This document shows positions 18,434-52,083 of a stretch of 64,000 bases of DNA, piece by piece. Position numbers and translations under genes: made by a program. The notes under the pieces are model-generated. The model had not been told where the DNA came from. It saw only the letters and a list, made by a program, of their open reading frames with translations, and ran no database searches. Origin of the DNA: Escherichia coli. GTDB taxonomy: Bacteria > Pseudomonadota > Gammaproteobacteria > Enterobacterales > Enterobacteriaceae. Location of the stretch: NCBI RefSeq assembly GCF_046105845.1, contig NZ_CP151004.1; one strand, given 5' to 3'. How positions within the stretch are numbered: the stretch's first letter is position 1; the number at the start of each line of letters is the position of its first letter.

Positions 18434-18534
18434 AGTAAATGCCCCAAAAAAAGAGGACGGTTTAAATAAACTCTGCAATGAATAATTAACGTTATTTACC
18501 TGTTATGGGAAAAGTGAAATCAGCTCATAACATA

Positions 18535-23992: not shown

Positions 23993-24009
23993 TAGCCGTA
24001 TCTGTGAAG

Positions 24010-24038
24010 AAAGGGCAGTACCGCTGATTCTGCCCTTT
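24010..24038. terminator. Bidirectional hairpin between convergent regulator and PTS IIA gene
   Basis: Inverted repeat aagggcag...ctgccctt followed by tttaattt. Confidence 0.55.
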
Positions 24039-24043
24039 TAATT

Positions 24044-24502
24044 TCAGGATGCTGCGAGCGTATCCTCTACATATTTAGCCACGCGCGTTGCAGGTAAATT
24101 GCGGCAAGTCTCAACAAAGGCGTTATCCTGAAACAGTGTGAATAAACGACGCAATATCGACATATGTTGATCACTGGTGGCAAATGCCAGGTTAAACATA
24201 ATGCTACAATCAACTGTTAAAGCAGCATCTTCCATCTGTCCGAAAGTGACATCATTGGAGAAACGAACAATACTGATGCTGTTTACATTTACCAGCGTGT
24301 AATCGGCATGGGGAATGGCGATACCCTGACCGTTTGCCATCATTAATCCTGTCGGATAGCTTTTTTCACGTTCCAGACAGGCGTCAATGTATTCTGCAGT
24401 GATGTAGCCTTTTTCCAATAATTGCGTACCAGCAAAGGTGATCGCCGTTTGATAGTCGTTGATGCTGTTATCAACATCATTTACCAGAATTTCAAATTTC
24501 AT
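24044..24502 (-). CDS. PTS EIIA component (fructose/mannitol/galactitol type 2 family)
   Basis: 152 aa; conserved histidine context GQGIAIPHADYT typical of EIIA-2 domains. Confidence 0.8.
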   Translation of the reverse strand: MKFEILVNDVDNSINDYQTAITFAGTQLLEKGYITAEYIDACLEREKSYPTGLMMANGQGIAIPHADYTLVNVNSISIVRFSNDVTFGQMEDAALTVDCSIMFNLAFATSDQHMSILRRLFTLFQDNAFVETCRNLPATRVAKYVEDTLAAS

Positions 24503-24512
24503 TGCACACCTG

Positions 24513-24797
24513 TTATTTCAGTATCTCTTCTTTAACTGCAGCGAAAATCTCATCTTCGCCCAGACCAGTCAGTAATCCAGCGCCAACGATGACACGAGTA
24601 GTAATGGCCGGGTTATCGAGTTTGGTCGATGAAACCACCAGGTCATAGCTGTTGAAGGTATCGCTGGTGCATGCCATTAACGAAGATTTATCGACTTGCG
24701 CTTCAATTTTCTCTTCTTTCAGTAAGTCCTGCAGTACAGAGACCATGATGGAAGATGAGGCAATTCCGTTTCCGCAAACTACTAAGATTTTTTTCAT
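24513..24797 (-). CDS. PTS EIIB component (galactitol/lactose-type)
   Basis: 94 aa; N-terminal MKKILVVCGNGIASSS with phosphorylatable cysteine. Confidence 0.8.
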   Translation of the reverse strand: MKKILVVCGNGIASSSIMVSVLQDLLKEEKIEAQVDKSSLMACTSDTFNSYDLVVSSTKLDNPAITTRVIVGAGLLTGLGEDEIFAAVKEEILK

Positions 24798-24820
24798 TTG
24801 ATTATTCCTCTGTAAAAGAT

Positions 24821-26191: not shown

Positions 26192-26194
26192 ACA

Positions 26195-26731
26195 TTAACC
26201 CTCAGATTTTTCATCATCTGGTCGGAAACCCATATTCCAGCGTACATCAGCGGGCTTAACCAGCAATGCATTATCGTTACGTTCAGCTTCTAGTAAGTTC
26301 TTTTTAGAATTTTCTCTGGCGGTGGTGAAGTCGAATGGGTTATCCAACCATGCATCGACAATCATTTTGCTGTATTCGAGATCGTTGACCCGGCAACCCA
26401 GTCCAATAACTTGTGCGTTATTGCTGAGTCGCGCCCGCTTTGCGGAGTAGGGGTTAGTAACCGCAACGGCTCTTATGCCCCAGTGTTTGTTGATCTGACA
26501 AGTAAAGCCAATGCCAGTCCCACAAATGTAAATTCCCAGACGGCACTCATCGCGTTGAATAATGCCTGCCATTTCGTCGGCTAGACGCGCGAAGTTATTG
26601 ACACCTTGTTCCTTACATGTGACGGGATCGTACACGATCTCCATGTTTTTCTCTTCTATGAGGTATTTTTTTATCTCCTCTTTACGTGCAAAACCTACAT
26701 CATCGCTTGCGATAGCAATCTTCGTTTTCAT
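26195..26731 (-). CDS. RpiB/LacAB-family sugar-phosphate isomerase with C-terminal extension
   Basis: 178 aa; motif GIYICGTGIGFTCQINKHWGIRAVAV resembles the RpiB active-site region; first gene of the minus-strand PTS operon. Confidence 0.75.
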   Translation of the reverse strand: MKTKIAIASDDVGFARKEEIKKYLIEEKNMEIVYDPVTCKEQGVNNFARLADEMAGIIQRDECRLGIYICGTGIGFTCQINKHWGIRAVAVTNPYSAKRARLSNNAQVIGLGCRVNDLEYSKMIVDAWLDNPFDFTTARENSKKNLLEAERNDNALLVKPADVRWNMGFRPDDEKSEG

Positions 26732-27079
26732 TTCATTTTGCCTGTCGTTAAGTAACTAAAGCCAAGTATGCTGTTGGTAAATATTGGTTGTCAATTGAGA
26801 TCTAAATCACAAAATTTATAACTGATTGATTTTTATGATAAAAAAAACCAATAAAAACAAATAAAAAATAAATTAAGCCAATTGAGACAAATTGGGATTG
26901 TACAGTGGCGTTGTAATGAATAATAAAAACTCATTTATTATCAATCGGATATATGGTTTTTGAACTATTGTCTTTATTGGGTTTATTTGTACTTTCCACT
27001 GTTAGTGTTTGTTTTTGTTTGCATCATCTGTGCTATGCTTGGCGTTTTCTAAGATGGGTAATAGATTTCAGGAGGAAGG
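26732..27079. promoter_or_regulatory. AT-rich divergent control region between the minus-strand PTS operon and the DeoR-family regulator gene
   Basis: About 350 bp, very AT-rich, no coding potential, flanked by divergent gene starts. Confidence 0.5.
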
Positions 27080-27835
27080 ATGTATCTGGTTGATGAAAGG
27101 CGAAAGTTAATACTTGAAGACTTAATGTCGGCAGGTACGGTCTATGTCAGTGATCTTGCACGAAAGTATGAAGTAACGTATGAGACCATCAGGAAAGATT
27201 TGACCCATCTTGAACAAAAAGGGCTGCTGATCAAAAGCCATGGTGGGGCGACTTTAAAGCAAAGGGCCATAGAGCATCCCTTTCAGGTCAGGGAAAAAGA
27301 AAATAACTCTTATAAGAAGGCGATAGCTCGTAAAGCGCTTGATTTCATTCCGCCTAATAGTTCGATGATTATCGGTACGGGCAGTACCACTTTTGAGCTG
27401 GCTAACCTGTTATGTATGAAGTCTGGGTTTAAAATCTTCACAGATTCGCTCCCCGTTGCCAGTGTGTTGATTGAATCTGACAATCAGGTTTTTCTCTTTG
27501 GCGGCGAACTGCGTAGAAAGAGTTCCTCAGTGTTTGGGGGGTGGGCGGTATCTATGATCAACGATATACATGTTGATCTCTGTTTCATTGGAACCGACGG
27601 TTTTAGTAACATGACTGGTCCATCGACGCCTTCTTCTTCTGATGCGTTTTTGGATCGCACGATAATTTCGCACTCAGACAAAAAATATATCCTCGGTGAT
27701 TACACCAAGTTTGAGCGCAGCAGTTTGTTTAAGATCTGCGACTGGTCGGAGATCACCGCCCTTATTACCAACGATCATGCCGACAAAGAGGGGATTGCCG
27801 AAGTCGCAAAATACACGTCAGTAATAACCTGTTAG
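27080..27835 (+). CDS. DeoR-family transcriptional regulator
   Basis: 251 aa; N-terminal HTH (VYVSDLARKYEVTYETIRKDLTHLEQKGLL) and C-terminal DeoR sugar-binding domain. Confidence 0.85.
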   Translation: MYLVDERRKLILEDLMSAGTVYVSDLARKYEVTYETIRKDLTHLEQKGLLIKSHGGATLKQRAIEHPFQVREKENNSYKKAIARKALDFIPPNSSMIIGTGSTTFELANLLCMKSGFKIFTDSLPVASVLIESDNQVFLFGGELRRKSSSVFGGWAVSMINDIHVDLCFIGTDGFSNMTGPSTPSSSDAFLDRTIISHSDKKYILGDYTKFERSSLFKICDWSEITALITNDHADKEGIAEVAKYTSVITC

Positions 27836-28010
27836 AACTCACTACGACACGCCTTCTCTCTTCGAATCAGCTTTGCCAAATGTAATCATTTCATAATTAT
27901 CAAGTGAGCATCCATGGCGATGCTTGCTTAGCGCCCTCTATTGAATACATCCTCTACATATTGCCAGTTTCACTTCATTTTTAGCGACGAAATCATTTTT
28001 TGAATCACGA

Positions 28011-28152
28011 TTTGCTCATATGAGCGTAAATAGTGTCGCCATTATGTGATTTTTTGTGATCTGGATTTAATTTCTCAGATCTCGTCATTTGTCCACAGGA
28101 TCGTTGTGCTATAACTGCTCATATGAAGGTTGTTCAATGCTCATGTGAGCAT
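28011..28152. promoter_or_regulatory. Three palindromic operator-like sites upstream of the plus-strand PTS operon
   Basis: tgctcatatgagcg (28013-28026), gctcatatga (28117-28126) and aatgctcatgtgagcatt (28137-28152) share the inverted-repeat core GCTCAT-ATGAGC. Confidence 0.5.
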
Positions 28153-28172
28153 TGGGGGTGAGGGGGAAGGAT

Positions 28173-28616
28173 ATGATATCGATCAGTGTTGCCGATGGTG
28201 CGGGACTACAGAACTACGATGCCGTGCTTGAACATATTTATAACACGCATCGTGAAACGAATACGGTGAAAGAGAGCTGGCTCAATGCTATGCGTAAACG
28301 CGAAGCGGAATATCCGACAGGAATAGAACTGGAAGGTTATTCTATCGCTATACCACACTGTGATAGTGAACATGCGAATCAACCGGCTATTTACATCATC
28401 CGTCTGCCAGACGCAATACCTGTGAACAGGGCTGATGAAGATGGAATATTGTGGGTCAGACTGGTCGTTAATATCATTGTTACGGATCCTGCTGACCAGC
28501 TTCGATTGTTAAAGTCATTATTTAACCATCTCCAAAATGAAGAATTCTACCAAAACTTACTGACACTTCCCGTCGAGGATGCAAAAGCACTTTTTGTATC
28601 CAGGATAATCCAATAG
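28173..28616 (+). CDS. PTS EIIA component (type 2 family)
   Basis: Probable start at second ATG (ggaagga ribosome-binding site); conserved histidine context YSIAIPHCDSE. Confidence 0.8.
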   Translation: MISISVADGAGLQNYDAVLEHIYNTHRETNTVKESWLNAMRKREAEYPTGIELEGYSIAIPHCDSEHANQPAIYIIRLPDAIPVNRADEDGILWVRLVVNIIVTDPADQLRLLKSLFNHLQNEEFYQNLLTLPVEDAKALFVSRIIQ

Positions 28617-28634
28617 TAAAAACTGGAGTTTATT

Positions 28635-28928
28635 ATGATTAATATTCTTGTTGCTTGTGGTAGCGGTGTCGCTACATCTACGCTTGCTGCTGATGAAGTG
28701 AAGTCAGTATGTGCTGAATATGGTATTACGGCATTTAAAATCAACAAATGCAGTATGGCTGAACTTTCTTCTGAGATGGCTCATGCAGATATTGTACTCA
28801 CAACTAATAATTATAAAGGTGATATTGGGAAACCACATATGAGCGTTGCAGGTTTTGTAACGGGTATTAATGAAGGAGCATTACGCAAGAAATTAGGAGA
28901 GTTATTAACTGAATTAGCAAATAGCTAA
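28635..28928 (+). CDS. PTS EIIB component (galactitol-type)
   Basis: 97 aa; MINILVACGSGVATST with phosphorylatable cysteine. Confidence 0.8.
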   Translation: MINILVACGSGVATSTLAADEVKSVCAEYGITAFKINKCSMAELSSEMAHADIVLTTNNYKGDIGKPHMSVAGFVTGINEGALRKKLGELLTELANS

Positions 28929-28948
28929 ACCTGACAGGAATAATAAAA

Positions 28949-30202
28949 ATGGAAATGTTGAAAAATTTAATGGAAACAATCACCGGAATGGGGGCGACTG
29001 CAATACTGCCGCTGGTGATATTTATTTTAGGTCTGGTGTTCAGAATGAAACCAGGTGCCGCGATCAAGTCGGGCATCACCGTCGGTATTGGTTTTATTGG
29101 TTTAGGTTTAGTTGTTGGTTTATTAAATAGTTCATTACAGCCAGCTATCGAGTATTACTCAAAAGTAGGCAGTGGTTTTACGGTTGCAGATATTGGTTGG
29201 CCAGCAGTCGGTGCGGCTGCATGGGTAGCACCTTTTGCCGCATTAGTGATACCAGTTGGCATCGTACTTAACCTGATTCTGGTGCGCCTGAAATTAACCA
29301 AAACGTTAAATGTTGATATCTGGAACTATATGCATTTTTTAGTTCCGGGCGCTCTGGCATATTTTGTGTTCGACAGTTTTATCATCGGCTTCTCTGTCGC
29401 GGTGGCTTTGAGTATTGCGGCCCTGTTTATTGGCGATTTGATTGCGCCCAGATGGCAAAAATATTATGGACTCGAGGGAACAACCTGTACCACGATGATT
29501 CATATCGGCTGGACTCTACCGTTCGCCTGGGTAGTAAATAAAATCATTGATTACATCCCTGGGTTAAATAAGTTAGATGTTGACTTAAACAGTGTGCAAA
29601 AACGCCTGGGTGTCTTTGGTGAACCTGCAATTATCGGTGTTATCGTTGGCGCATTACTCGGAGTTTTAACGAAACAGGCAATTACCACAATTGTTCCCAT
29701 GGCGATGGGGGTTGCTGGTGTAATGGTATTGTTACCTAAAGTGGTCGGTGTGCTGATGGAAGGTCTTAACCCGATTGGGAAAAGTGCCAAAGAAATCATG
29801 CAAAAACAGATGGGTAAAGATGCTGAATTAAACATCGGTATGGATTGTGCACTGGCGTTGGGGGATCCGGCGACGGTCACCGTGACAGTCATTACCATTC
29901 CTTTAACTATGCTATGTGCTCTGGTATTGCCTGATATTAAGATCTTCCCAATTGGCGTATTGATGTCAATTATTTATATGACCACCATGACCGTAATGGC
30001 GAGCAACGGTAACGTGATTCGTTCGATTATCTCGACCTTGTTATTCTGCGTTGTAGTGATGTATTTAGGCGGTTATGTCGCACCAGGGGCAACGCAATTT
30101 TTAGCTGGAGCCGGTGTAGGCTTGCAAGGACAAGGTACTGATTTTGTATTAACCGGCCCGTGGGAAATTTTAACCTATTGGTTGAGCACCGTATTACATT
30201 GA
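28949..30202 (+). CDS. PTS EIIC permease, galactitol (GatC) family
   Basis: 417 aa polytopic membrane protein of GatC/SgcC type. Confidence 0.8.
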   Translation: MEMLKNLMETITGMGATAILPLVIFILGLVFRMKPGAAIKSGITVGIGFIGLGLVVGLLNSSLQPAIEYYSKVGSGFTVADIGWPAVGAAAWVAPFAALVIPVGIVLNLILVRLKLTKTLNVDIWNYMHFLVPGALAYFVFDSFIIGFSVAVALSIAALFIGDLIAPRWQKYYGLEGTTCTTMIHIGWTLPFAWVVNKIIDYIPGLNKLDVDLNSVQKRLGVFGEPAIIGVIVGALLGVLTKQAITTIVPMAMGVAGVMVLLPKVVGVLMEGLNPIGKSAKEIMQKQMGKDAELNIGMDCALALGDPATVTVTVITIPLTMLCALVLPDIKIFPIGVLMSIIYMTTMTVMASNGNVIRSIISTLLFCVVVMYLGGYVAPGATQFLAGAGVGLQGQGTDFVLTGPWEILTYWLSTVLH

Positions 30203-30224
30203 TTTAATAATCTGGAGTTTTAAC

Positions 30225-30869
30225 ATGGCAAAAATATTACCTTCTATATTTGGCGCGGATATTTTACGCCTGAAAGATGAAATTCATTTTCTGGAAGAGG
30301 AACAAACCGAAATATTGCACGTTGATTTAATGGATGGCACTTACGTCAGTAATATTGCCTTTGGCCCAAATCAAATTGCAGCAATGAAAAAAGCCAGTTC
30401 GATGATCTTTGACGTGCATATGATGCTGGCAAATCCTGAGCGACATATTGATGATGTAATCAATACCGGGGCGGAGATGATTTCTGTACATTATGAGTCG
30501 ACGCCACATGTGCATTATATTATTCAAAAAATCAAAAAAGCGGGGCGCAAAGCAGGTGTTGTGCTTAATCCTGGGACACCTGAATCTGTCATCGAGTATT
30601 TATTAGATGATATTGATTATATATTGTTAATGACAATTAATCCGGGGCAACTAGGCCAGACATTTATTCATAAAAGCCTGGAGAAAATCCGTAACACCAA
30701 AAAATTGATATCTGGCAGAGATATTCAAATTGAAGTGGATGGTGGCGTTAATCTTGATAATGTGAAACAAGTTAAAGAAGCGGGGGCTGACCTTATTGTT
30801 GTTGGCGGTGCATTATTTAACAAACAGCCTCATGAAAGTTATCAGGCATTAAAAATCGCTGTTCAGTGA
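30225..30869 (+). CDS. Ribulose-phosphate 3-epimerase family protein (ketose-phosphate 3-epimerase)
   Basis: 214 aa; N-terminal LPSIFGADILRLKDE matches the RPE SILSAD signature region; metal-binding His/Asp residues present. Confidence 0.8.
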   Translation: MAKILPSIFGADILRLKDEIHFLEEEQTEILHVDLMDGTYVSNIAFGPNQIAAMKKASSMIFDVHMMLANPERHIDDVINTGAEMISVHYESTPHVHYIIQKIKKAGRKAGVVLNPGTPESVIEYLLDDIDYILLMTINPGQLGQTFIHKSLEKIRNTKKLISGRDIQIEVDGGVNLDNVKQVKEAGADLIVVGGALFNKQPHESYQALKIAVQ

Positions 30870-30964
30870 TCATAATCTAAAAATTTTACATCCAGCTAAG
30901 TGAGGTTTTCGATTTCATATCGGGAGGAAAACCCCAACTAAAAAGTCTTTAATGGAGAAAAGTA

Positions 30965-31717
30965 ATGAGTAATTTTGCAGGTAAAGTGGTTTTAGTTACC
31001 GGAGGTGCTCACGGTATTGGCAAAGGGATAGCTAAACAATTTGCTGATCGTGGTGCACATACTGTTATTGTTGACTATAACGAAGAGAACGGCAAGGCCA
31101 CTGCAGCAGAGTTAACTTTTGGCGATGTTAAATCGCTGTTTGTTAAAACAGATGTCTCCGATCCACAGGCATTAGTGGATGTACGGGAAAAAGTATTTGC
31201 TACCTTTGGTCGTATTGATGTGTTGATATTAAATGCCGGTGTGGCATTTGCCAATAAAGTTAACAATATTTCTTTTGAGGAATGGAATAAGACTATCGCA
31301 ATTAACTTATCGGGATTATTTAATACCGTTAAGGCATTTTATGATGATTTCCTGACAAATAAGGGATCTATTGTTTATATCTCATCGGGATCAGCGCTTT
31401 CGGGGACTGGGGGCGGCGTGAGCTATCCTGCCAGTAAAGCGGGAGGCGAAGGATTGATTCGTGGTCTGGCAAAAGAGTTAGGACCAAAAGGCGTAAATGT
31501 TAATGCGATTGCTCCCCGCTTAATAGACACCGGAGATATGATGCGGGTCAACTATCCAACACAAGCCGATTTAGACGCTGTCCTGGAAAAAATACCCGTC
31601 CGTCGTCTGGGGACTATCGATGATGTGGCTAACCTGGCAATATTTTTGGCAGATAAAGATAACTCTTATATTCAGGGACAAACCATTTTAATGGATGGTG
31701 GCCGGACTATTGCTTAA
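30965..31717 (+). CDS. Short-chain dehydrogenase/reductase (SDR) family oxidoreductase
   Basis: 250 aa; Rossmann motif VTGGAHGIGKG and catalytic YPASK. Confidence 0.85.
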   Translation: MSNFAGKVVLVTGGAHGIGKGIAKQFADRGAHTVIVDYNEENGKATAAELTFGDVKSLFVKTDVSDPQALVDVREKVFATFGRIDVLILNAGVAFANKVNNISFEEWNKTIAINLSGLFNTVKAFYDDFLTNKGSIVYISSGSALSGTGGGVSYPASKAGGEGLIRGLAKELGPKGVNVNAIAPRLIDTGDMMRVNYPTQADLDAVLEKIPVRRLGTIDDVANLAIFLADKDNSYIQGQTILMDGGRTIA

Positions 31718-31732
31718 AAAGGGAGAGGAAAA

Positions 31733-32293
31733 ATGAGTGTTCAGGAAAATACTCTTAATATTCTGCATGAATTAGAGAGTAATGCACTGAAGATTGACGA
31801 TGCTCAGGCTGCACAGTTTATTTCGCAAATCAGAAATGCCCGGCATATTTTTTTGCAGGGAGCTGGGCGCAGTGGCATTGCTATTCGCGCTTTTGCTAAT
31901 CGCTTGCTGCATTTAGGTTTTTCAGTAAGCGTTGTGGGAGAAATATCATCACCGCATACCCAACCTGGAGATCTATTAATTATTGGGTCAGGCAGTGGTG
32001 AAACTACCAGTTTAAAAAGTCTGGCACAAAAAGCAGTTGATAGCGGAGTAAACGTAGCTCTGGTAACTATGAAAGCAGATTCGACGATCGGTAAATTAGC
32101 TCAATCTGTGTTGGTACTACCAGGAAGTGTGAAAGACGATAACAATCGTGTTGCAGGCGCTTTCGCACAACCAATGGGATCGGCTTTTGAGCAGCTCTGC
32201 TTTATTACTTATGATGCAATTGTTCTGGAGTTGATGTCTGAACTGGGTGAAAGCAGTGCCACAATGTTTACCCGACACGCTGATCTGGAATGA
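31733..32293 (+). CDS. SIS-domain sugar-phosphate isomerase (6-phospho-3-hexuloisomerase-like)
   Basis: 186 aa; SIS-domain features (FLQGAGRSG ... LLIIGSGSGETT) and size typical of PHI-type isomerases. Confidence 0.7.
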   Translation: MSVQENTLNILHELESNALKIDDAQAAQFISQIRNARHIFLQGAGRSGIAIRAFANRLLHLGFSVSVVGEISSPHTQPGDLLIIGSGSGETTSLKSLAQKAVDSGVNVALVTMKADSTIGKLAQSVLVLPGSVKDDNNRVAGAFAQPMGSAFEQLCFITYDAIVLELMSELGESSATMFTRHADLE

Positions 32294-32317
32294 CCAAAGA
32301 GTTGGTAATTAGAAAGT

Positions 32318-32346
32318 AAAAAGCCTGCTTGAAAGCAGGCTTTTTT
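32318..32346. terminator. Bidirectional rho-independent terminator between the SIS gene and tRNA-Asn
   Basis: aaaagcctgcttgaaagcaggctttttt: perfect hairpin flanked by A-run and T-run. Confidence 0.8.
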
Positions 32347-32351
32347 GAATT

Positions 32352-32427
32352 TGGCTCCTCTGACTGGACTCGAACCAGTGACATACGGATTAACAGTCCG
32401 CCGTTCTACCGACTGAACTACAGAGGA
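32352..32427 (-). tRNA. asnV: tRNA-Asn (anticodon GUU)
   Basis: Reverse complement is the 76-nt E. coli tRNA-Asn TCCTCTGTAGTTCAGTCGGTAGAACGGCGGACTGTTAATCCG...GAGGAGCCA. Confidence 0.95.
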
Positions 32428-32752
32428 ATCGTGTGAACGGGGCGCATATTAATGGCAGTGCATGGTGATGTCAAAGGGTGAAATGCATTTTTTTGTTTGT
32501 TTGCTGTCAATTTCAACAAAGTGGTGAGCTTTCAATCTTATTGGTAATGAACCATCGTGGTGCATACCCTCCTTTTATGGGGCAGGGGAACGCGACAGCT
32601 GATAAAAAGAGCCAATGACGAACCTATCATAATCTCTTATTTGACAGTTGGTTAGCTTGTACATCAACGCCAAAATAAAACTGGCAAGCATCTTGCAATC
32701 TGGTTGTAAGTAATGGCGGCACTTGGGCCGATTCTTAAAAACCGGAGGCAAC

Positions 32753-33670
32753 ATGAACTTCAGACGCCTGAAATACTTCGTAAAAATTGTAGATATTGGT
32801 AGCCTGACCCAGGCTGCTGAAGTATTGCATATCGCACAACCAGCGCTCAGTCAGCAGGTTGCCACACTGGAAGGTGAGTTAAATCAACAACTTTTGATTC
32901 GCACAAAACGGGGCGTTACGCCAACTGACGCCGGAAAAATTCTCTATACCCATGCGCGGGCCATTTTACGTCAGTGTGAGCAGGCCCAACTGGCGGTGCA
33001 TAACGTTGGTCAGGCATTATCGGGGCAAGTCTCGATTGGCTTTGCGCCAGGAACCGCTGCGTCATCCATCACCATGCCCTTATTACAGGCGGTTCGCGCT
33101 GAATTCCCGGAGGTCGTTATCTATCTTCATGAAAATAGCGGTGCAGTACTTAACGAAAAACTGATAAATCATCAACTCGATATGGCGGTGATTTATGAGC
33201 ATTCCCCTGTGGCTGGTGTATCCAGCCAGGCTTTGCTGAAAGAAGATCTTTTCCTGGTAGGAACTCAAGATTGCCCGGGGCAAAGCGTTGATGTTAATGC
33301 TATTGCGCAAATGAACCTCTTTCTCCCCAGTGATTACAGTGCTATTAGACTTCGTGTTGATGAGGCTTTTTCCCTACGGCGACTCACGGCAAAAGTCATT
33401 GGTGAAATTGAGTCTATTGCCACGCTTACCGCAGCGATTGCTAGCGGCATGGGCGTTGCAGTATTACCCGAATCGGCCGCGCGTTCGTTATGTGGCGCAG
33501 TAAATGGTTGGATGTCACGCATTACCACTCCTTCCATGAGTCTCTCTTTGTCATTAAATTTACCCGCCAGAGCGAACTTATCGCCACAGGCACAGGCAGT
33601 GAAAGAGTTGTTAATGTCAGTGATGAGTTCTCCAGTGATGGAAAAAAGGCAGTGGCAATTGGTGAGCTAA
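32753..33670 (+). CDS. nac: Nitrogen assimilation control protein Nac (LysR family)
   Basis: Internal start MNFRRLKYFVKIVDIGSLTQAAEVLHIAQPALSQQV (LysR HTH); 305 aa. Confidence 0.92.
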   Translation: MNFRRLKYFVKIVDIGSLTQAAEVLHIAQPALSQQVATLEGELNQQLLIRTKRGVTPTDAGKILYTHARAILRQCEQAQLAVHNVGQALSGQVSIGFAPGTAASSITMPLLQAVRAEFPEVVIYLHENSGAVLNEKLINHQLDMAVIYEHSPVAGVSSQALLKEDLFLVGTQDCPGQSVDVNAIAQMNLFLPSDYSAIRLRVDEAFSLRRLTAKVIGEIESIATLTAAIASGMGVAVLPESAARSLCGAVNGWMSRITTPSMSLSLSLNLPARANLSPQAQAVKELLMSVMSSPVMEKRQWQLVS

Positions 33671-33771
33671 GCGTTATATCGGGATGGAATAAGATGCGGG
33701 TTTTTATTATTTGTTATGCCGGGCATTAGACTTTAACAATAACGGGAAATCTGAACTGCCCGGAGTTTACC

Positions 33772-34722
33772 GTGAATTTCCAACAAATAAAGATAATCCG
33801 CGAGGCTGCACGTCAGGATTACAACCTGACAGAGGTTGCGAATATGCTTTTTACCTCACAGTCCGGCGTCAGCCGTCATATTCGGGAACTGGAGGATGAA
33901 CTTGGCATCGAAATATTTGTTCGACGAGGTAAGCGACTGCTGGGCATGACTGAACCGGGCAAAGCATTACTGGTCATTGCAGAACGTATTCTGAATGAAG
34001 CCAGTAATGTTCGTCGGCTTGCAGACCTGTTTACCAACGATACGTCTGGCGTTCTCACTATTGCAACGACGCATACTCAGGCACGTTATAGCTTGCCAGA
34101 GGTCATTAAAGCTTTTCGCGAACTTTTCCCGGAGGTTCGGCTGGAGCTAATCCAGGGTACGCCACAGGAAATTGCGACGTTGTTGCAAAATGGCGAAGCT
34201 GATATTGGTATCGCCAGCGAGCGTTTGAGTAATGACCCGCAGCTCGTCGCCTTCCCGTGGTTTCGTTGGCACCATAGTTTGCTTGTTCCACTCGATCATC
34301 CCTTGACGCAAATTACACCGTTGACGCTGGAATCAATAGCGAAGTGGCCGTTAATTACTTACCGACAGGGGATTACGGGGCGCTCACGTATTGATGACGC
34401 ATTTGTCCGCAAAGGTTTGCTGGTAGATATTGTATTAAGTGCGCAGGATTCTGATGTCATTAAAACCTATGTTGCTCTTGGGTTGGGGATTGGATTAGTT
34501 GCCGAACAATCCAGCGGCGAACAAGAGGAAGAGAATTTAATCCGTCTTGATACGCGGCATCTTTTCGATGCCAATACTGTATGGTTGGGACTGAAGCGAG
34601 GGCAACTTCAACGTAACTATGTCTGGCGCTTTCTGGAACTTTGTAATGCAGGACTGTCAGTTGAGGATATCAAGCGCCAGGTGATGGAGAACAGTGAAGA
34701 GGAAATTGATTATCAGATATAG
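33772..34722 (+). CDS. cbl: Cbl, LysR-family regulator of sulfonate-sulfur utilisation
   Basis: 316 aa beginning MNFQQIKIIREAARQDYNLTEVANMLFTSQSGVSRHIRELE. Confidence 0.92.
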   Translation: MNFQQIKIIREAARQDYNLTEVANMLFTSQSGVSRHIRELEDELGIEIFVRRGKRLLGMTEPGKALLVIAERILNEASNVRRLADLFTNDTSGVLTIATTHTQARYSLPEVIKAFRELFPEVRLELIQGTPQEIATLLQNGEADIGIASERLSNDPQLVAFPWFRWHHSLLVPLDHPLTQITPLTLESIAKWPLITYRQGITGRSRIDDAFVRKGLLVDIVLSAQDSDVIKTYVALGLGIGLVAEQSSGEQEEENLIRLDTRHLFDANTVWLGLKRGQLQRNYVWRFLELCNAGLSVEDIKRQVMENSEEEIDYQI

Positions 34723-34723
34723 C

Positions 34724-34752
34724 AAAAAGCCCGCTATAAAAGCGGGCTTTTC
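34724..34752. terminator. Bidirectional rho-independent terminator between cbl and tRNA-Asn
   Basis: aaaagcccgctataaaagcgggcttttc hairpin. Confidence 0.75.
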
Positions 34753-34759
34753 AGAAATT

Positions 34760-34835
34760 TGGCTCCTCTGACTGGACTCGAACCAGTGACATACGGATTA
34801 ACAGTCCGCCGTTCTACCGACTGAACTACAGAGGA
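34760..34835 (-). tRNA. asnU: tRNA-Asn (anticodon GUU)
   Basis: Identical 76-nt tRNA-Asn sequence on the minus strand. Confidence 0.95.
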
Positions 34836-34995
34836 ATCGCTGTTGAGGCACATCTTAACGGCGAAAAATCTTTTGTCAAACCCGATTTTTAAATTTCCCA
34901 ACTGTTTGCCGTTTCTATCAACAGTTTGTTGCATTTGCAGACAATTTGTTGGCGAAAATCTTTGCAGCTTTGCTGATTCTCCCTCATTATTTGAA

Positions 34996-36483
34996 ATGTG
35001 GTTTCACTTTCTGCAATTAAGGTCGGCTTTGAATATCTCCTCTGCTTTACGCCAGGTTGTTCACGGCACTCGCTGGCACGCTAAACGCAAGAGCTACAAA
35101 GTGTTGTTCTGGCGCGAGATAACCCCGCTTGCTGTTCCTATCTTCATGGAGAACGCCTGTGTCCTGTTGATGGGTGTTCTGAGCACTTTTCTGGTCAGCT
35201 GGCTGGGAAAAGATGCGATGGCCGGCGTGGGATTGGCCGACAGCTTCAATATGGTCATTATGGCTTTTTTTGCAGCTATCGATCTTGGTACCACTGTCGT
35301 TGTGGCATTTAGTCTCGGTAAGCGGGATCGACGACGAGCGAGGGTGGCGACGCGGCAGTCATTGGTGATCATGACGTTGTTTGCCGTACTGTTGGCAACG
35401 CTTATTCATCATTTTGGCGAACAAATTATTGATTTCGTCGCGGGTGATGCCACGACAGAAGTTAAAGCACTGGCGTTGACTTATCTGGAGCTGACGGTAC
35501 TCAGTTATCCAGCAGCTGCCATCACTTTGATTGGTAGTGGGGCACTTCGTGGTGCAGGGAATACGAAAATACCGCTACTGATTAACGGTAGCCTGAATAT
35601 TCTTAATATTATTATTAGCGGCATATTGATTTACGGCCTTTTCTCCTGGCCGGGACTGGGATTTGTCGGGGCTGGGTTGGGTTTAACCATTTCTCGTTAT
35701 ATTGGCGCAGTGGCAATTTTGTGGGTGCTGGCGATTGGTTTTAATCCTGCGCTAAGGATTTCGTTAAAGAGCTATTTTAAACCGCTGAATTTTAGCATTA
35801 TCTGGGAAGTCATGGGGATTGGTATTCCAGCAAGTGTCGAATCAGTATTATTTACCAGTGGTCGGTTATTAACCCAAATGTTCGTTGCCGGGATGGGGAC
35901 CAGTGTTATTGCCGGAAATTTTATCGCGTTTTCAATTGCGGCTCTTATCAACTTACCCGGAAGTGCGCTCGGCTCTGCTTCTACGATCATTACAGGCCGA
36001 AGGTTGGGAGTAGGGCAGATAGCGCAAGCAGAGATTCAGTTGCGGCATGTGTTCTGGCTGTCCACTCTTGGATTAACGGCCATCGCCTGGCTAACGGCTC
36101 CCTTTGCCGGGGTTATGGCATCGTTTTACACCCAGGATCCACAGGTTAAACATGTCGTTGTGATTCTGATTTGGCTAAATGCTTTATTTATGCCTATTTG
36201 GTCTGCCTCATGGGTGCTACCCGCTGGATTTAAGGGTGCTCGCGATGCACGTTACGCCATGTGGGTTTCTATGTTGAGCATGTGGGGTTGCCGGGTTGTA
36301 GTCGGTTATGTGCTGGGAATCATGCTTGGCTGGGGGGTGGTTGGTGTCTGGATGGGAATGTTTGCCGACTGGGCTGTGCGGGCCGTGCTGTTTTACTGGC
36401 GAATGGTTACTGGACGTTGGCTGTGGAAATATCCTCGATCTGAGCCGCAAAAGTGTGAAAAAAAGCCAGTTGTGTCGGAATAA
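34996..36483 (+). CDS. yeeO: YeeO MATE-family efflux transporter
   Basis: Internal start MWFHFLQLRSALNISSALRQ gives 495 aa; 12-TM MATE-like protein; the supplied ORF has a 51-codon upstream extension. Confidence 0.88.
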   Translation: MWFHFLQLRSALNISSALRQVVHGTRWHAKRKSYKVLFWREITPLAVPIFMENACVLLMGVLSTFLVSWLGKDAMAGVGLADSFNMVIMAFFAAIDLGTTVVVAFSLGKRDRRRARVATRQSLVIMTLFAVLLATLIHHFGEQIIDFVAGDATTEVKALALTYLELTVLSYPAAAITLIGSGALRGAGNTKIPLLINGSLNILNIIISGILIYGLFSWPGLGFVGAGLGLTISRYIGAVAILWVLAIGFNPALRISLKSYFKPLNFSIIWEVMGIGIPASVESVLFTSGRLLTQMFVAGMGTSVIAGNFIAFSIAALINLPGSALGSASTIITGRRLGVGQIAQAEIQLRHVFWLSTLGLTAIAWLTAPFAGVMASFYTQDPQVKHVVVILIWLNALFMPIWSASWVLPAGFKGARDARYAMWVSMLSMWGCRVVVGYVLGIMLGWGVVGVWMGMFADWAVRAVLFYWRMVTGRWLWKYPRSEPQKCEKKPVVSE

Positions 36484-36583
36484 ACGACAAAGTGCAGATT
36501 ATTTCAGCAAACGATTTCAAATTTAAAAAACAGGCTTTGACATTGTGGATGGGCATCGCTAATATTCGCCTCGTTCTCACGAT

Positions 36584-36659
36584 TCCTCTGTAGTTCAGTC
36601 GGTAGAACGGCGGACTGTTAATCCGTATGTCACTGGTTCGAGTCCAGTCAGAGGAGCCA
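36584..36659 (+). tRNA. asnW: tRNA-Asn (anticodon GUU)
   Basis: Plus-strand copy of the same 76-nt tRNA-Asn sequence. Confidence 0.95.
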
Positions 36660-36720
36660 AATTTTAGTTTTGAGACATCTCTATAAGTCTCAAAACAGTT
36701 AAAAAATAAAAATTATTTTT

Positions 36721-36757
36721 ACCCGGTTACTTGTAAAAAAGTTACCGGGTTTTTTGA
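36721..36757 (+). terminator. Rho-independent terminator after tRNA-Asn
   Basis: acccggttacttgtaaaaaagttaccgggtttttt hairpin plus T-run; preceded by a second hairpin at 36667-36694. Confidence 0.75.
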
Positions 36758-37112
36758 TTTCTGTGTTTCGTGCGCTTAATCGAGTCTCACGCTTCAGTGA
36801 GCAAATTGCCCCTCCCCAACAGACATCACGATTCGCAAGGTCAAAAACTCTGTTCCATGAAGTACCGTACAAAGATAAAGAGAAAAATGCCTTATGCGGG
36901 ATGTCGCTATCGCGTCTTTATCGGGAAACTATGCGTAATTGCCACTTTGCCTTCTGTAATCAGAAAAAGAAGAACTGGAATTTTAATAAATATTATTTCT
37001 CTGGGAATGGGTTTTTTTTATAATCAATATGACGAGTTGAACATTATATTTTTATAATGATTATATGAGATTAAAGAAATCTGCCATAAAGACAGATTTC
37101 TTTAAAATATAA

Positions 37113-37829
37113 TTAGAGATTTGCGACGTTATGATAAACTTTTTGTACATCGTCGTCATCTTCAAGGGCATCAACAAGCCCTTCAAAGATTTCTAAATCT
37201 TCTGGGGAAAGCTCAACTTCAGATTGAGCAATCATTTCTAATTCTGTTGTTGAGAACTCAGTGATTCCAGCTGCTTTTAGAGCCGCGATTCCTTTATGAA
37301 GGTCAGTAGGTTCGGTATAAATAACAATGTTACCTTCTTCTTCAGTCACATCACGAACATCAACTTCAGCTTCAAGTAAAATTTCAAAAATATGGTCAGG
37401 GTCTGTTCCTTTAAATACAATCACACCCGTATTGTCAAACATATAGCTGACAGAACCTGCCGCTCCGATATTGCCGCCTTTTTTATTGAAAATTGTGCGA
37501 ACGTTAGCAATCGTACGGTTAACATTGGAAGTCAAGGTTTCAGCGATAATCATTGAGCCATTAGGACCAAAGCCTTCATAACGGCCCTGCACGAACGTTT
37601 CATCTCCGCCGCCTTTGGCTTTATCAATTGCTTTATCAATAACATGCTTTGGAACTTGTGCCTGCTTTGCTCGTTCAATAACGAATTTTAAAGATGTGTT
37701 TAATTCTGGATCGGGTTCACCTTGTTTGGCAGCGGCATAGATTTCTACACCGAATTTTGCATAAATTTTAGACGTCGCACCGTCTTTAGCCGTTTTTTTA
37801 GCAACAATATTGGCCCATTTACGTCCCAC
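37113..37829 (-). CDS. yeeN: YeeN, YebC/PmpR-family transcriptional regulator
   Basis: 238 aa beginning [27 protein letters not shown]. Confidence 0.92.
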
Positions 37830-38171
37830 TGGAATGATCTCCTCGAAAATTTATTTACATTACTGGTAAATCGTTAACATGTGTTAGTTCGGCATATTAT
37901 ATCATAACAGGAAAAATCTCGTCTATTAGAAATAAAAATATTCTAAAGCCATAATATTATATTTAATCTCATAAAAACTAATGTTGTTGGCGGATTTTTT
38001 TATAATTCTTTTTTGAAAGCATACTTGCTTTTAATATGTGGAAATCATTAAGACGATAATAAAACTCGTATCCGCCCAAGGAAGCAAACAGCCCGCGTTT
38101 ATTGCGGGCTATTTGCCAGATGTCTTACTTAATCCTTCACATCTATTTTTGATAAGAAGGTTCAGAACTTA

Positions 38172-39626
38172 TTATCGGAACGGCGGCTCATTAAAGGTTC
38201 GTAATTTACGTGAATGCAGTCGGTCGCCTTCTGCGCGCAGCAAATCGATCGCCCGAATGCCAATTTGCAGGTGTTCGGAAATAGCGCCTTCATAAAAACG
38301 GTTAGCCTGACCGGGAAGTTTAATCTCACCATGCAACGGTTTATCTGAAACACACAGTAGTGTCCCGTATGGCACGCGGAAACGATATCCTTGCGCAGCG
38401 ATGGTTGCACTTTCCATATCAATTGCTACGGCCCGGCTTAAGTTAAAACGAAGTGCAGAAGCTGAGTAACGTAATTCCCAATTCCTGTCATCTGTGGTTA
38501 CCACAGTGCCAGTACGTAGCCGCTGTTTAACTTCCTCACCGGGCCTGCCGCTGACTAACTTGGTAGCGTCATAAAGCGCACGTTGCACTTCAGCAATGCT
38601 CGGAATAGGAATATCGGGCGGCAGTACCGCATCAAGAACGTGGTCATCGCGTAAATAAGCGTGTGCAAGTACATAATCTCCAATGGCCTGGCTTTCACGT
38701 AAGCCACCACAGTGACCAATCATCAACCAGACATCCGGGCGTAGCACCGCCAGATGATCGCAGATGGTTTTTGCATTTGACGGTCCCACGCCAATATTCA
38801 CCAGAGTAATACCCTGACCATCGACGGTAATTAAATGCCATGCTGGCATCTGGTGTTTTTTCCATGCAAGGTCGGAAATGGCTTCTTCTGGCGCTTCGGT
38901 TTCGGCGGTGATCCAGTTCCCGCCAGCACAAGAAAGGGCAATGTAGGGACTATCAGGGTCGAGGATCTGGCTGCATCCCCAACGAACGAATTCATCCACA
39001 TAACGTGTGTAGTTGGTAAACAAGACGAACGGCTGAAAATGTTCAACTGGCGTACCGGTATAATGGCGCAACCGCGCGAGGGAAAAATCGACGCGGCGCG
39101 CATCAAAATGCGATAGCGGGGAGAATTCCGTTGGATGATAAATGCCGTCTGCAGTTTCATCGCCAATTTGCGCCAGTTCTGTTGTCGGGAAGTAGCGAGT
39201 TAGCCCAGCGCTCATTGAGCGATCAAGTGTCAATTCAGAGCCATCGATGACATAAGGATAAGGGATTTCATGCTGCGAGGGTTGCATCGAGATATGCGCA
39301 CCATAATCCTGATACAGCAACGTAAGTTGTTCATTGAGATACGAACGAAAGAGAGTAGGGCGAGTAATCGTGGTGGTGTAGCTGCCTGCGTGGGTAAAAC
39401 GACCAAATGCGCGCGTTTTGGGGGGATTGGTTGTGCTACCGTCCCAGGTTACGGTCAGTGATGGATAGACAAAAAGACCTTGTTTGCGGGCGTTTTCATC
39501 AGGTAATTCGCCACTTGTAATATATTTGCCAATGGCGTTGCGTAAAGCGACTACAGATTGCTCATACAGCGCGTCGAGTTTATCCAGTGCCTGAGCTGGG
39601 GTCAGACCGGAGCCCTTATTATTCAT
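38172..39626 (-). CDS. amn: AMP nucleosidase
   Basis: Internal start MNNKGSGLTPAQALDKLDALYEQ gives 484 aa; the supplied ORF has an upstream extension. Confidence 0.92.
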   Translation of the reverse strand: MNNKGSGLTPAQALDKLDALYEQSVVALRNAIGKYITSGELPDENARKQGLFVYPSLTVTWDGSTTNPPKTRAFGRFTHAGSYTTTITRPTLFRSYLNEQLTLLYQDYGAHISMQPSQHEIPYPYVIDGSELTLDRSMSAGLTRYFPTTELAQIGDETADGIYHPTEFSPLSHFDARRVDFSLARLRHYTGTPVEHFQPFVLFTNYTRYVDEFVRWGCSQILDPDSPYIALSCAGGNWITAETEAPEEAISDLAWKKHQMPAWHLITVDGQGITLVNIGVGPSNAKTICDHLAVLRPDVWLMIGHCGGLRESQAIGDYVLAHAYLRDDHVLDAVLPPDIPIPSIAEVQRALYDATKLVSGRPGEEVKQRLRTGTVVTTDDRNWELRYSASALRFNLSRAVAIDMESATIAAQGYRFRVPYGTLLCVSDKPLHGEIKLPGQANRFYEGAISEHLQIGIRAIDLLRAEGDRLHSRKLRTFNEPPFR

Positions 39627-39727
39627 GTGTGTCTCCTGTTCCATACAATTACCGCACATCCGATAGTATGTCACAGAAATGTGAAACAAAAGTGTAAGGC
39701 GAAGATCGGATGATCTTCGCCAGACTA

Positions 39728-41044
39728 TCAAGCGCGTTGATTATCTTTCATCAACAAAGCGGTCATTGCGGAAATCAGGCATCCAGCCAGCAAATAAATG
39801 GCGACGCTATGCCAGTTCCCGGCAAAGTAAGTGATGAGTGCAGCGGCAATAAAAGGTGTAAATCCACCGCCAACCACACTGGCAACCTGATAACCGACTC
39901 CAGCGCCACTATAGCGATAACTGGCACCAAACATTTCGGTAAACATCGGTTGTTGCACACACACCACCATGTCATGCGCAATGTTTGCCAGCATTATGGA
40001 GAAGAAAACTATCCAGAAAATAGATTGTGCTTCAAGCGCCATAAAGAAAGGAAATGCGCTCAACGTTCCGATTAACGCACCTGTGATATAAACCCTGCGG
40101 CGACCAAAACGATCGGCAAGCCAGGCAAAACAGGGAATTGTCAGGCAGCTTAATCCACCTACCAGCAAACCAATATTGAGGAAAAGTTCGCGCGGTAACC
40201 CCATATTCTGGGTTGAATAATTAAGTGCGAAGGCGGTAACGATGTACATCGTCAGCAACTCGCACAGTCGTAGCGCAATAATCTTCAGGAAAGCACCAGG
40301 ATGCCGTAATAGTGCTTCGATAACCGGAATGCGTTTTTTCGCGGCCGCTTGATTATGTTGCTGTTGTTCGAATTCCGCGGACTCCTCCATGCCATTGCGC
40401 ACCCACAATGCTCCCAGTACCAGTACGATGCTAAACAGGAAAGGAATGCGCCAGCCCCAGCTTAAAAACTGTTCGTCAGTCGTCATCATACTGATCAATG
40501 AAACCAGTCCGGTTGAAAGCAGTAAACCTACACCGTAGCCAACTTGTACACCGCTACTATAAAAGGCTTTTTTATTTTTCGGCGCACTTTCAACGGAAAG
40601 TAACGCCGCGCCTCCCCATTCGCCGCCGACGGCAAATCCCTGTATGGCACGCAGCGTCACCAGTAAAATGGGGGCCCACCACCCAATGGTCGAGAAGGAA
40701 GGAAGAATACCAATCAAGGCTGTCGCGATGCCCATCATCCAGACGGTCAGCATTAACATGCGTTTACGTCCCAGTCGGTCGCCAAAGTGACCGAAAATGA
40801 CACCGCCGAGCGGACGGAACAGGAATCCGACACCAAAGGTGGCAAATGCGGCGAGCGTTCCCATAGCCGGGCTTACTTGCGGGAAAAACTCGCGATTAAA
40901 CACCAGTGCGGCGGTAATGCCATAGAGTAAAAAATCATACCAGTCGACGACGGCACCGGCAAAACTGCCTAACGCAGCTCGTCGGGCGCGACTTAACGAA
41001 AGCGTCCCTTCATCGGGACGAGTGGAGATGAGCGTGGAGTCCAT
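39728..41044 (-). CDS. shiA: Shikimate:H+ symporter ShiA (MFS)
   Basis: 438 aa MFS transporter in the conserved position next to amn. Confidence 0.9.
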   Translation of the reverse strand: MDSTLISTRPDEGTLSLSRARRAALGSFAGAVVDWYDFLLYGITAALVFNREFFPQVSPAMGTLAAFATFGVGFLFRPLGGVIFGHFGDRLGRKRMLMLTVWMMGIATALIGILPSFSTIGWWAPILLVTLRAIQGFAVGGEWGGAALLSVESAPKNKKAFYSSGVQVGYGVGLLLSTGLVSLISMMTTDEQFLSWGWRIPFLFSIVLVLGALWVRNGMEESAEFEQQQHNQAAAKKRIPVIEALLRHPGAFLKIIALRLCELLTMYIVTAFALNYSTQNMGLPRELFLNIGLLVGGLSCLTIPCFAWLADRFGRRRVYITGALIGTLSAFPFFMALEAQSIFWIVFFSIMLANIAHDMVVCVQQPMFTEMFGASYRYSGAGVGYQVASVVGGGFTPFIAAALITYFAGNWHSVAIYLLAGCLISAMTALLMKDNQRA

Positions 41045-41358
41045 AATGATCCTGTTTGTACTGTCTTTTTATAATTAGTATGGAAAAGGTAACTCACATT
41101 GCCGTCGATCTATAAACGAACCTTATGAGACTACCTCGACAGAGCGCATCTGCAAATGATTTTATGGCTGATGAGCAACAACACGAAAAATTCGCTGGAA
41201 GATGAAAGCGCAGGAGTTGCTGGTGTTGTTTAAGGATTAAGCAGAGGCCCCACAGGTTCGAGATATGAAACATAAAAGTCCGCATATGTACAAAATAGCA
41301 CCCTGATGAGTCTGATAGACTGCATTGCATTATAACCAGTAGGGAGGCGAGGTTAGGT

Positions 41359-42411
41359 ATGTTTTTAGCATCATTGTTGAGACGTATTGCATTTAGTTAC
41401 TACGATTATAAAGCTAATAATTTCAATATTGGAAAAACAGACTTTGTTGTCATCCATATTCCCGATCAAATTGGCGATGCTATGGCCATCTTTCCAGTTA
41501 TTCGGGCGATTGAAATGCATAAAATAAAGCATCTTTTAATTGTTACTTCGACTATTAATTTAGAAGTCTTTAATGCGCTCAAACTTGAACAGACTAAATT
41601 AACATTAGTCACAATGACTATGCAGGATCACGCAACATTAAAAGAAATAAAAGATTTAGCGAAGAACATAACACAGCAATACGGTACGCCGGATCTTTGT
41701 ATAGAGGCGATGCGTAAAAAGAACCTGAAAACGATGTTATTTATCAGTCAGTTGAAAGCAAAAACGAATTTTCAGGTTGTCGGTTTAACCATGAAGTGCT
41801 ATTCCCCTTTGTGTAAGAACGCGTCCCGGATGGATCAGAATCTCAGGGCTCCCGTACCCATGACATGGGCGTTTATGATGCGTGAAGCGGGTTTTCCTGC
41901 AGTCAGGCCAATATATGAATTGCCATTAAGCGAGGATGTACTCGATGAGGTGCGCGAGGAAATGCGATCGTTAGGATCTTACATTGCGCTTAATTTAGAA
42001 GGTAGCTCGCAGGAGCGTACATTTTCATTATCGATTGCAGAAAATCTAATAGCAAAAATTCAAAGTGAAACAGATATACCAATAGTGATCGTTCATGGAC
42101 CCAAAGGGGAAGATAAAGCCAGGGAACTAGTGAATAGTTATAATAATGTCTACCGTTTATCCTTGTCACCCTCGATTAAACGTTCAGCAGCAATCATAAA
42201 AGATGCTTATATCGCAATAACACCTGACACCTCAATATTACATATGGCAAGTGCCTATAATACCCCCGTTGTTGCAATTTATGCTGATTACAAAACGCGA
42301 TGGCCCGCAATGGCCGATGTCTCGGAGTCAGTCGTCGTTGGGCAAAAAATTGACAATATAAGTCTGGATGAATTCGCAAAGGCATTAAAAAGTGTTTTGG
42401 CGAGAATTTGA
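41359..42411 (+). CDS. yeeL: YeeL, glycosyltransferase family 9 (heptosyltransferase-like) protein, intact
   Basis: 350 aa uninterrupted ORF in the shiA-yeeJ interval. Confidence 0.75.
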   Translation: MFLASLLRRIAFSYYDYKANNFNIGKTDFVVIHIPDQIGDAMAIFPVIRAIEMHKIKHLLIVTSTINLEVFNALKLEQTKLTLVTMTMQDHATLKEIKDLAKNITQQYGTPDLCIEAMRKKNLKTMLFISQLKAKTNFQVVGLTMKCYSPLCKNASRMDQNLRAPVPMTWAFMMREAGFPAVRPIYELPLSEDVLDEVREEMRSLGSYIALNLEGSSQERTFSLSIAENLIAKIQSETDIPIVIVHGPKGEDKARELVNSYNNVYRLSLSPSIKRSAAIIKDAYIAITPDTSILHMASAYNTPVVAIYADYKTRWPAMADVSESVVVGQKIDNISLDEFAKALKSVLARI

Positions 42412-42982
42412 GGCAGTACTTATGCATAGTAATGCCGATCTGTTATGAACGGTAGTGTCATCAATGCTCTGAGGCTGGTCAATCATCACAGAAAACCAGC
42501 CTTTGGATCAAAGCAGTACTCACCGAAAATGCTCATAGTCACACCGAACGCGATTCAGGTGGAACTAAAACATTCACCATCATAAATAAGACAGCCTGAA
42601 CTTAAATCCCCGTTAACAGGCATACATTATAATGAGTGGTACTGATGTAATTTGTAATATTGAAATATGAACTGATATTGTTTGTTCGTCCTGACATATC
42701 TTCCTCCTTGATGTAATTAGCTAAACATTAACGTAATTTGACTGCATAGCAACAATGATAGCTATCAATAATAGCTCATGTACTTCGTTTCCCGCTGGCG
42801 TGGAACAGGTGGTTATACCATGTGTGAAAGCGTTTATTAAAAAAGAAAGGAGGCTCGACTATCTTCAGACTAACAGGGATGTATGGGAAAATGCAGGTAT
42901 ATTAATGGAGCGTTTGACAGCAAACGAATGTAAAAGTAGAGCGCCCCGAATGGAGCACTCTGTAAGAAAATATAGCGAAAAA

Positions 42983-51595
<8,613 letters not shown>

Positions 51596-51907
51596 GCTTA
51601 CCTTCCCTGAACGAGCTAACATAAATGCGCCCTTTCTAGCACAGCGAAAAAATGTAAATCCTGATAGCAATATGATTGAAAATTAATAAATTTTCGTTAA
51701 GCAGTTTTGGGTGTGGGTTGCAAGAGGGGAGACTACTGAATTACTCAAGTTTTGTAATCGAGGGGAAAATGGTGATGGCGTTCATAGCAAAACGCCCTCA
51801 ACCATAAAGGTCGAGGGCGCTTAAGATGTCAAAAACCCGCTATCCGTTAAAAAGCAATGCTCAACTAAGGTCAGTGACATTGCGCTAAAAAGCGAATTTT
51901 TAGAATT

Positions 51908-51983
51908 TGGCTCCTCTGACTGGACTCGAACCAGTGACATACGGATTAACAGTCCGCCGTTCTACCGACTGAACTACAGAGGA
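51908..51983 (-). tRNA. asnT: tRNA-Asn (anticodon GUU)
   Basis: Fourth copy of the same 76-nt tRNA-Asn sequence, minus strand, between yeeJ and mtfA. Confidence 0.95.
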
Positions 51984-52083
51984 ATCGTGTGAACGGGGCG
52001 CATATTACTTAGCGGTACCTTGTCTGTCAACACTAAATTTCATAAGTCATTTCAATTGGTTAATTAATCCGCAAAGTTGTTAA

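Follow-up and report, generated by a model that had tools for sequence, protein, structure and literature searches.

In all probability, the four tRNA-Asn(GUU) genes found in a 64,000-nt stretch of Escherichia coli DNA (the window, from contig NZ_CP151004.1) are, as read from their sequence, the standard family of the species. They would represent four empty attB sites with no inversion between them, and the sugar cassette that lies beside asnV would not have been integrated at the tRNA gene. The literature has already established the four tRNA-Asn genes, the role that they play as attB sites for HPI and pks, and the inversion of the asnV-asnW segment. For the present genome, the analysis means that neither yersiniabactin nor colibactin is carried at the usual sites, and it corrects the idea of the block adjacent to asnV as a tRNA-borne island. 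As a by-product, 5426 complete E. coli genomes were surveyed for occupancy and rearrangement at the four asn sites.

The GTT anticodon and the cloverleaf were recognized in all four copies by ARAGORN and by Rfam (RF00005, 72.6 bits each), and the mature sequences are 100% identical over 76 nt. With these calls and the identical sequences, the preliminary description, which had placed four identical 76-nt copies on both strands at 32352, 34760, 36584 and 51908, is correct in position, identity and strand, exactly to the nucleotide. Its names are also borne out, since the flanking genes make the first copy asnV and the second asnU. The four copies span 19.6 kb. Three of them lie on the minus strand and asnW alone on the plus strand, so asnW forms an inverted repeat relative to asnV, asnU and asnT. 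A tRNA-Ser(CGA) gene was called by ARAGORN in the same stretch, at 52975-53064. Four Asn tRNA loci are known in K-12 (PMC3378859), and the asn tRNA genes are given as 100% identical in PMC8209727.

The gene order along the window is cobU-cobS-cobT-ldtA, a block of 9.5 kb, asnV, nac, cbl, asnU, yeeO and asnW, continuing with yeeN, amn, shiA, a yeeL-type glycosyltransferase gene, yeeJ, asnT, mtfA and serU. Without the 9.5-kb block, this is the order of K-12 MG1655 in the reverse reading direction. The K-12 locus (NC_000913.3, 2.044-2.066 Mb) has the same four genes in the same order and orientations, with empty flanks, at 97% identity. Its flanking synteny was found at the mtfA/yeeJ, yeeN/yeeO, yeeO/cbl and nac/ldtA sides, and the sole difference there is the cassette between asnV and ldtA: in K-12, 55 nt separate ldtA from asnV and the PTS cassette is absent. 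Farther out, the window also differs from K-12 in having a pdu operon upstream of cobUST. The coordinates of the tRNA genes and of their surroundings are collected in the table.

Table. Coordinates of the four tRNA-Asn genes, their putative signals, the neighbouring spacers and the cassette in the window.
Feature	Position	Strand	Remarks
Accessory 12-gene PTS sugar cassette, 9.5 kb	22830..32297	.	between ldtA and the asnV terminator
asnV terminator hairpin	32318..32345	-	12-bp stem and U run; -17.2 kcal/mol, z -6.7
asnV, tRNA-Asn(GTT), 76 nt	32352..32427	-	ARAGORN, Rfam; nac on the 5' side as in K-12
asnV promoter-like site	32446..32474	-	TTGACA-17-TAATAT, then GC-rich discriminator gcgccccg
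asnU terminator hairpin	34724..34752	-	-19.5 kcal/mol, z -5.7
asnU, tRNA-Asn(GTT), identical copy	34760..34835	-	3' end 37 nt from the cbl stop
asnU promoter-like site	34852..34879	-	TTGACA-16-TAAGAT
asnW promoter-like site	36537..36565	+	TTGACA-17-TAATAT
asnW, tRNA-Asn(GTT), identical copy	36584..36659	+	ARAGORN, Rfam, K-12 synteny
asnW/yeeN convergent intergenic spacer, 453 nt	36660..37112	.	unoccupied attB flank
asnW hairpins	36667-36696 and 36721-36750		terminator-like stems; U run after the second
yeeN terminator hairpin	37071-37105	-	-19 kcal/mol, z -8.6
asnT-yeeJ spacer, intact	51671..51907 (to 51539 with the K-12-equivalent yeeJ start)	-	hairpins 51830-51902 and 51790-51822
asnT, tRNA-Asn(GTT), identical copy	51908..51983	-	ARAGORN, Rfam, K-12 synteny
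asnT promoter-like site	52002..52030	-	TTGACA-17-TAATAT; read from sequence

Besides a promoter-like site upstream of each copy, predicted intrinsic terminators, formed by a hairpin and a U run, are found 3' of asnV, asnU and asnW (fold z from -5.6 to -6.7). Two hairpins lie downstream of asnT, of which the second is followed by UUUU and is a predicted terminator. Taken with what is known of K-12, these elements suggest four monocistronic units, each with its own strong sigma-70-type promoter and terminator, that would supply a single Asn isoacceptor. Outside the tRNA itself, the copies remain exactly identical for 4-24 nt on the 5' side and for 4-5 nt on the 3' side, and any two copies have in common an identical tract of 84-105 nt. 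The longest tract belongs to the asnV/asnT pair, whose identity takes in the 24 nt immediately 5' of the tRNA; the sequence upstream of asnU bears no relation to that of the other three copies.

In this reading, the last 16 nt of each tRNA-Asn gene (32352-32367 in asnV) would act as the attB core for P4-type tyrosine integrases, such as those of HPI, pks and related islands. By comparison with K-12 and other strains, the four sites of this genome are probably competent as attB. The 3' flanks of asnW and asnT would then be intact core-genome spacers, mostly made of terminators. The repeat searches are consistent with empty sites. The last 24 nt of the tRNA were found at no place beyond the four genes in the 64-kb window, allowing up to 3 mismatches (0.00 expected from shuffles), and the last 16 nt gave no extra copy with up to 2 mismatches (0.01 expected). 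The pks and HPI integrases compared with the whole window by tblastn gave noise only (best E 1.4-2), and in blastn searches the island ends of pks, HPI and strain NRZ14408 matched the window only at the tRNA end and the native flanks. These repeat searches, together with tblastn, Pfam and the colinearity with K-12, agree with the earlier remark that asnT and asnW carry no island, and they show no att repeat or integrase relic there.

The asnW flank had been described as about 450 bp of non-coding sequence with hairpins, which holds well: it measures 453 nt and has three strong hairpins. Aligned with K-12, it shows 96.9% identity over 583 nt, and it has neither a Pfam or Rfam match above threshold nor an annotated feature in curated K-12. 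Between the hairpins, an AT-rich stretch of about 300 nt (36761-37059) might be thought to hide a functional element, for instance a small RNA, a small protein or the relic of an integrase. We think that this is highly improbable. Nearly every E. coli genome does retain the sequence, with 95-99% identity, but this conservation is not above that of the neighbouring sequence. As for a small RNA, the manA-II match in this flank reaches 35 bits, the cut-off being 100 bits; in the Rfam scan of 22-54 kb the tRNAs alone reached the threshold, with the manA-II and plastid matches well under their cut-offs. The stretch contains two ORFs that overlap each other (89 and 95 aa), but no Pfam integrase domain was found in either of them, the sole Pfam match is below its cut-off, and the curated K-12 annotation has nothing at this place. 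A weak match, colinear with the integrase N-terminus, was obtained by tblastn when the 453-nt flank was the only search space (E 0.17, 18 bits, 27% identity over 48 columns); it would at most be an extremely old relic. With neither tblastn using real integrases nor Pfam was an integrase relic found in the flank.

Strains that carry islands at these genes provide the most direct comparison. In NRZ14408, asnW is occupied by an island that carries an Rhs gene and a frameshifted integrase. The far end of this island consists of the 16-nt repeat CCAGTCAGAGGAGCCA, and the sequence that comes next is 96% identical over 470 nt to the asnW flank of the window. As nothing separates this flank from the tRNA in the window, the site is empty, and this arrangement, together with the island-end repeat of NRZ14408, identifies the sequence as an unoccupied attB flank. 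The pks-positive strain ST95-32 is arranged as clb genes, integrase, asnW(-), yeeO(-), asnU(+), cbl(-), nac(-), asnV(+) and yeeN, and the far end of its pks island has the 16-nt repeat and an asnV-type flank of 54 nt, followed by ldtA. This placement of pks at asnW with an inverted asnV-asnU-asnW region of 4.3 kb corresponds to configuration 1A (Auvray 2021) and class Ic (Wami 2021). The pks system shares the 16-nt attB core, and the end points of the inversion are the asnV and asnW copies that are present in the window. Unlike the pks lineages, the window is non-inverted and has no clb genes or integrase.

The same strain, ST95-32, is also HPI-positive, with the integrase and ybt genes directly after asnT, that is, with the insertion at the asnT 3' end. 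The window shares with it the tRNA and the mtfA-side flank, without integrase or ybt genes. Moreover, the window keeps the yeeJ 5' end and the entire asnT-yeeJ spacer, whose sequence (51321-51900) was not found in the examined stretches of ST95-32. This absence fits a deleted right end in the HPI of E. coli, whose right repeat is reported as deleted in PMC8209727. The integrases beside asnW (pks) and asnT (HPI) in ST95-32 agree with the earlier statement that the tRNA-Asn copies are known integration sites of these islands in other E. coli, for which support is also found in PMC8209727 and PMC8461471. Compared with these pks- and HPI-positive strains, the asnW and asnT sites of the window are empty.

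In the asnT region, 2002 nt align with K-12 at 97.5% identity. The preliminary description had asnT abutting yeeJ directly; it is right in that no gene intervenes, but a spacer of 237-369 nt with two hairpins separates them. The gap amounts to 237 nt from the start of the longest ORF (TTG, 51670), 285 nt from the ATG at 51622 and 369 nt from the ATG at 51538; the last of these corresponds to the annotated yeeJ start of K-12, where the gap is 370 nt. The asnT site is intact and unoccupied here.

The block beside asnV is of a different kind. On the minus strand, it encodes a SorC-type regulator, EIIA, EIIB, EIIC(GAT) and RpiB, and on the plus strand a DeoR regulator and then EIIA, EIIB, EIIC, Rpe, an SDR oxidoreductase and HxlB, with two PTS systems of the galactitol/ascorbate family in all. 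In Pfam, 10 of the 12 proteins are PTS components, regulators or sugar-phosphate enzymes and nothing else; the other two are the SDR oxidoreductase and HxlB according to the annotation of strain A42. At least 80% of the cassette is present in 225 of the 5426 complete E. coli genomes (about 4%), and 52 further genomes have a part of it. It is a single-copy chromosomal element throughout, with 97.4-98.5% identity between strains. In A42, the one cassette-bearing genome whose annotation was read, it is located between ldtA and asnV.

When compared with an empty-site genome, the right edge of the cassette lies 54 nt past asnV, outside the terminator, which sits between the tRNA and this edge and is kept in cassette-free genomes. 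The left edge replaces the final codons of ldtA, so the 3' end of this gene differs between the cassette-bearing and the empty state. The cassette has no transposase and no tRNA-derived direct repeat at its boundary, and no similarity to the pks and HPI integrases was found in it by tblastn (E >= 0.34). Of the features of a tRNA-integrated island, it shows a strain-variable presence and an atypical composition (GC content 0.39-0.49), whereas an integrase beside the tRNA, a distal repeat and an insertion inside the tRNA 3' end are all lacking. The same 12 genes in the same order are found in Enterobacter wuhouensis, a Citrobacter species, Klebsiella oxytoca, Entomohabitans and Providencia vermicola, and a version with a core of 7 genes in Pseudocitrobacter, Erwinia, Brenneria and Pantoea. 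In other genera, tRNA-Asn, ldtA and nac do not lie near the cassette (15 loci compared, of which 13 carry the 12- or 7-gene form, one of these 13 being cut by a contig end), which argues for an accessory cassette and against a tRNA-integrated island.

The block could in principle be the decayed remnant of a true island integrated at tRNA-Asn that has lost its integrase and att repeats. Its place 3' of asnV is that of an integrating island, its GC content is lower than the average for E. coli, just about 4% of the genomes have it, and integrase-bearing islands are known at asnV in other strains. We nevertheless find such an origin quite unlikely, as one edge is 54 nt past the tRNA, outside a terminator common to empty-site genomes, the other is within the ldtA 3' end, the window has neither a repeat of the tRNA end nor integrase similarity, and the 13 cassette loci of other genera have no tRNA-Asn nearby. 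The claim that an island occupies the flank of the first copy is therefore valid insofar as there is a strain-variable block of 9.5 kb 3' of asnV, and not in the sense of tRNA integration, in view of its edges and the lack of integrase and repeat. The cassette is an island only in a loose sense and not a tRNA island of the HPI/pks type. It would be a horizontally distributed element that was gained or lost in some other way than by site-specific integration at the tRNA.

Concerning loss rather than gain, it is conceivable, although on balance we consider it unlikely, that the cassette has long been present in E. coli, as an ancestral trait of part of the species, and was deleted in most lineages instead of recently inserted here. 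Its divergence between strains resembles that of the neighbouring core genes, which favours long residence, and it is always chromosomal and single-copy, with the ldtA-asnV location in A42. Partial versions exist, and the difference at the ldtA 3' end is as expected from deletion or replacement. Acquisition is favoured by the absence of a close relative from representative genomes of other Escherichia species in a single scan, of a kind that detects close relatives only; the nearest relatives are 74-84% identical and occur in other genera at unrelated loci.

The identical tracts of 84-105 nt are also short substrates of homologous recombination, which in other strains has inverted the asnV-asnW segment (in pks lineages) or yeeO alone. 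The complete genomes were searched with junction queries of 876 nt, each consisting of the tRNA with 400 nt of flank on either side, and a junction was counted if one place covered at least 80% of the query. The native junctions were found in 5177/5426 genomes for asnU (cbl-asnU-yeeO), 4980/5426 for asnW (yeeO-asnW-flank) and 2669/5426 for asnT (mtfA-asnT-yeeJ), and the K-12-type junction of asnV (ldtA-asnV-nac) in 4665/5426. The junction of the asnV/asnW inversion is present in 265 of the 5426 genomes, including a derivative of Nissle 1917; this inversion has been published and linked to pks (Auvray 2021, PMC8209727; Wami 2021, PMC8461471). The asnU/asnW inversion junction, in which only yeeO is inverted, was detected in 32 of the 5426. 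Neither an asnW/asnT inversion nor an asnU/asnT deletion junction occurs in any of them (0/5426 each). A query design of 530 nt for the asnV/asnU deletion was set aside because one parent alone would span more than 80% of it.

Inversions by way of asnW, the lone plus-strand copy, therefore occur in the population, and the window has the non-inverted, ancestral arrangement. The inversion of yeeO alone was confirmed in the annotation of strain LD27-1 (positions 4401-6300 of its locus), and full-text literature searches, including the matching passages of the two colibactin papers, yielded no published description of it. The 32 genomes show several identity levels (99.0, 98.1, 97.1, 96.5 and 96.3%), which suggests independent events. 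It is thus possible, and we put it forward tentatively, that, in addition to the published inversion linked to pks, the tRNA-Asn copies repeatedly and independently drive inversions over short ranges in natural E. coli. Frequent flips of this kind would make the locus a small natural shuffling module, altering which flank each attB faces. The identical copies had been proposed as substrates for inversion or deletion, and the first part of this proposal is well supported by the asnV/asnW and asnU/asnW junctions, while a simple deletion between direct copies was not found.

A deletion of nac-cbl between asnV and asnU was considered as a candidate and rejected. The junction from ldtA through a tRNA to the yeeO start was found in 35/5426 genomes, yet nac-cbl is still present in the one inspected, 2016C-3878, where it has been relocated behind an integrase-flanked Rhs island, which indicates a complex rearrangement and not a deletion. 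The order in 2016C-3878 is ldtA, tRNA(-), yeeO, tRNA(+), an integrase pseudogene and an Rhs island, continuing with integrase(-), tRNA(-), nac and cbl, after which there is no tRNA but a T6SS/Rhs island. Two integrase-bearing islands thereby face each other between tRNA-Asn copies in this strain.

Several observations were made on the genes around the tRNA copies. The maximal yeeJ ORF (42983-51670) encodes 2895 aa, compared with 2339 aa in K-12, and its part at 46521-48647 consists of tandem units of 609 nt (203 aa) that are 81-94% identical. The extra units are presumably Ig-like domains. These repeats were missed by TRF because their 609-nt period is above its 500-nt limit, and they were detected by another repeat search. 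The yeeL-type glycosyltransferase of family 9 (41359-42411) is an intact ORF of 350 aa here and a pseudogene in K-12.

In the regions compared with the 5426 complete E. coli genomes, the window reaches at most about 98-99% identity, and the best-matching strain changes by segment among A42, VCSW7, WG5, NRZ14408 and EC28. The source lineage is either poorly represented among complete genomes or mosaic in this stretch. At the other end of the window, a complete operon for propanediol utilisation (pdu), with pduF and pocR, extends over 1464-19355 and is directly followed by cobUST. The position of the Salmonella cbi genes is occupied solely by an ORF of 168 aa (18849-19355). The same pdu-cobUST layout is found in NRZ14408 and 2016C-3878, in which a cobalamin riboswitch is annotated upstream of the 168-aa ORF.
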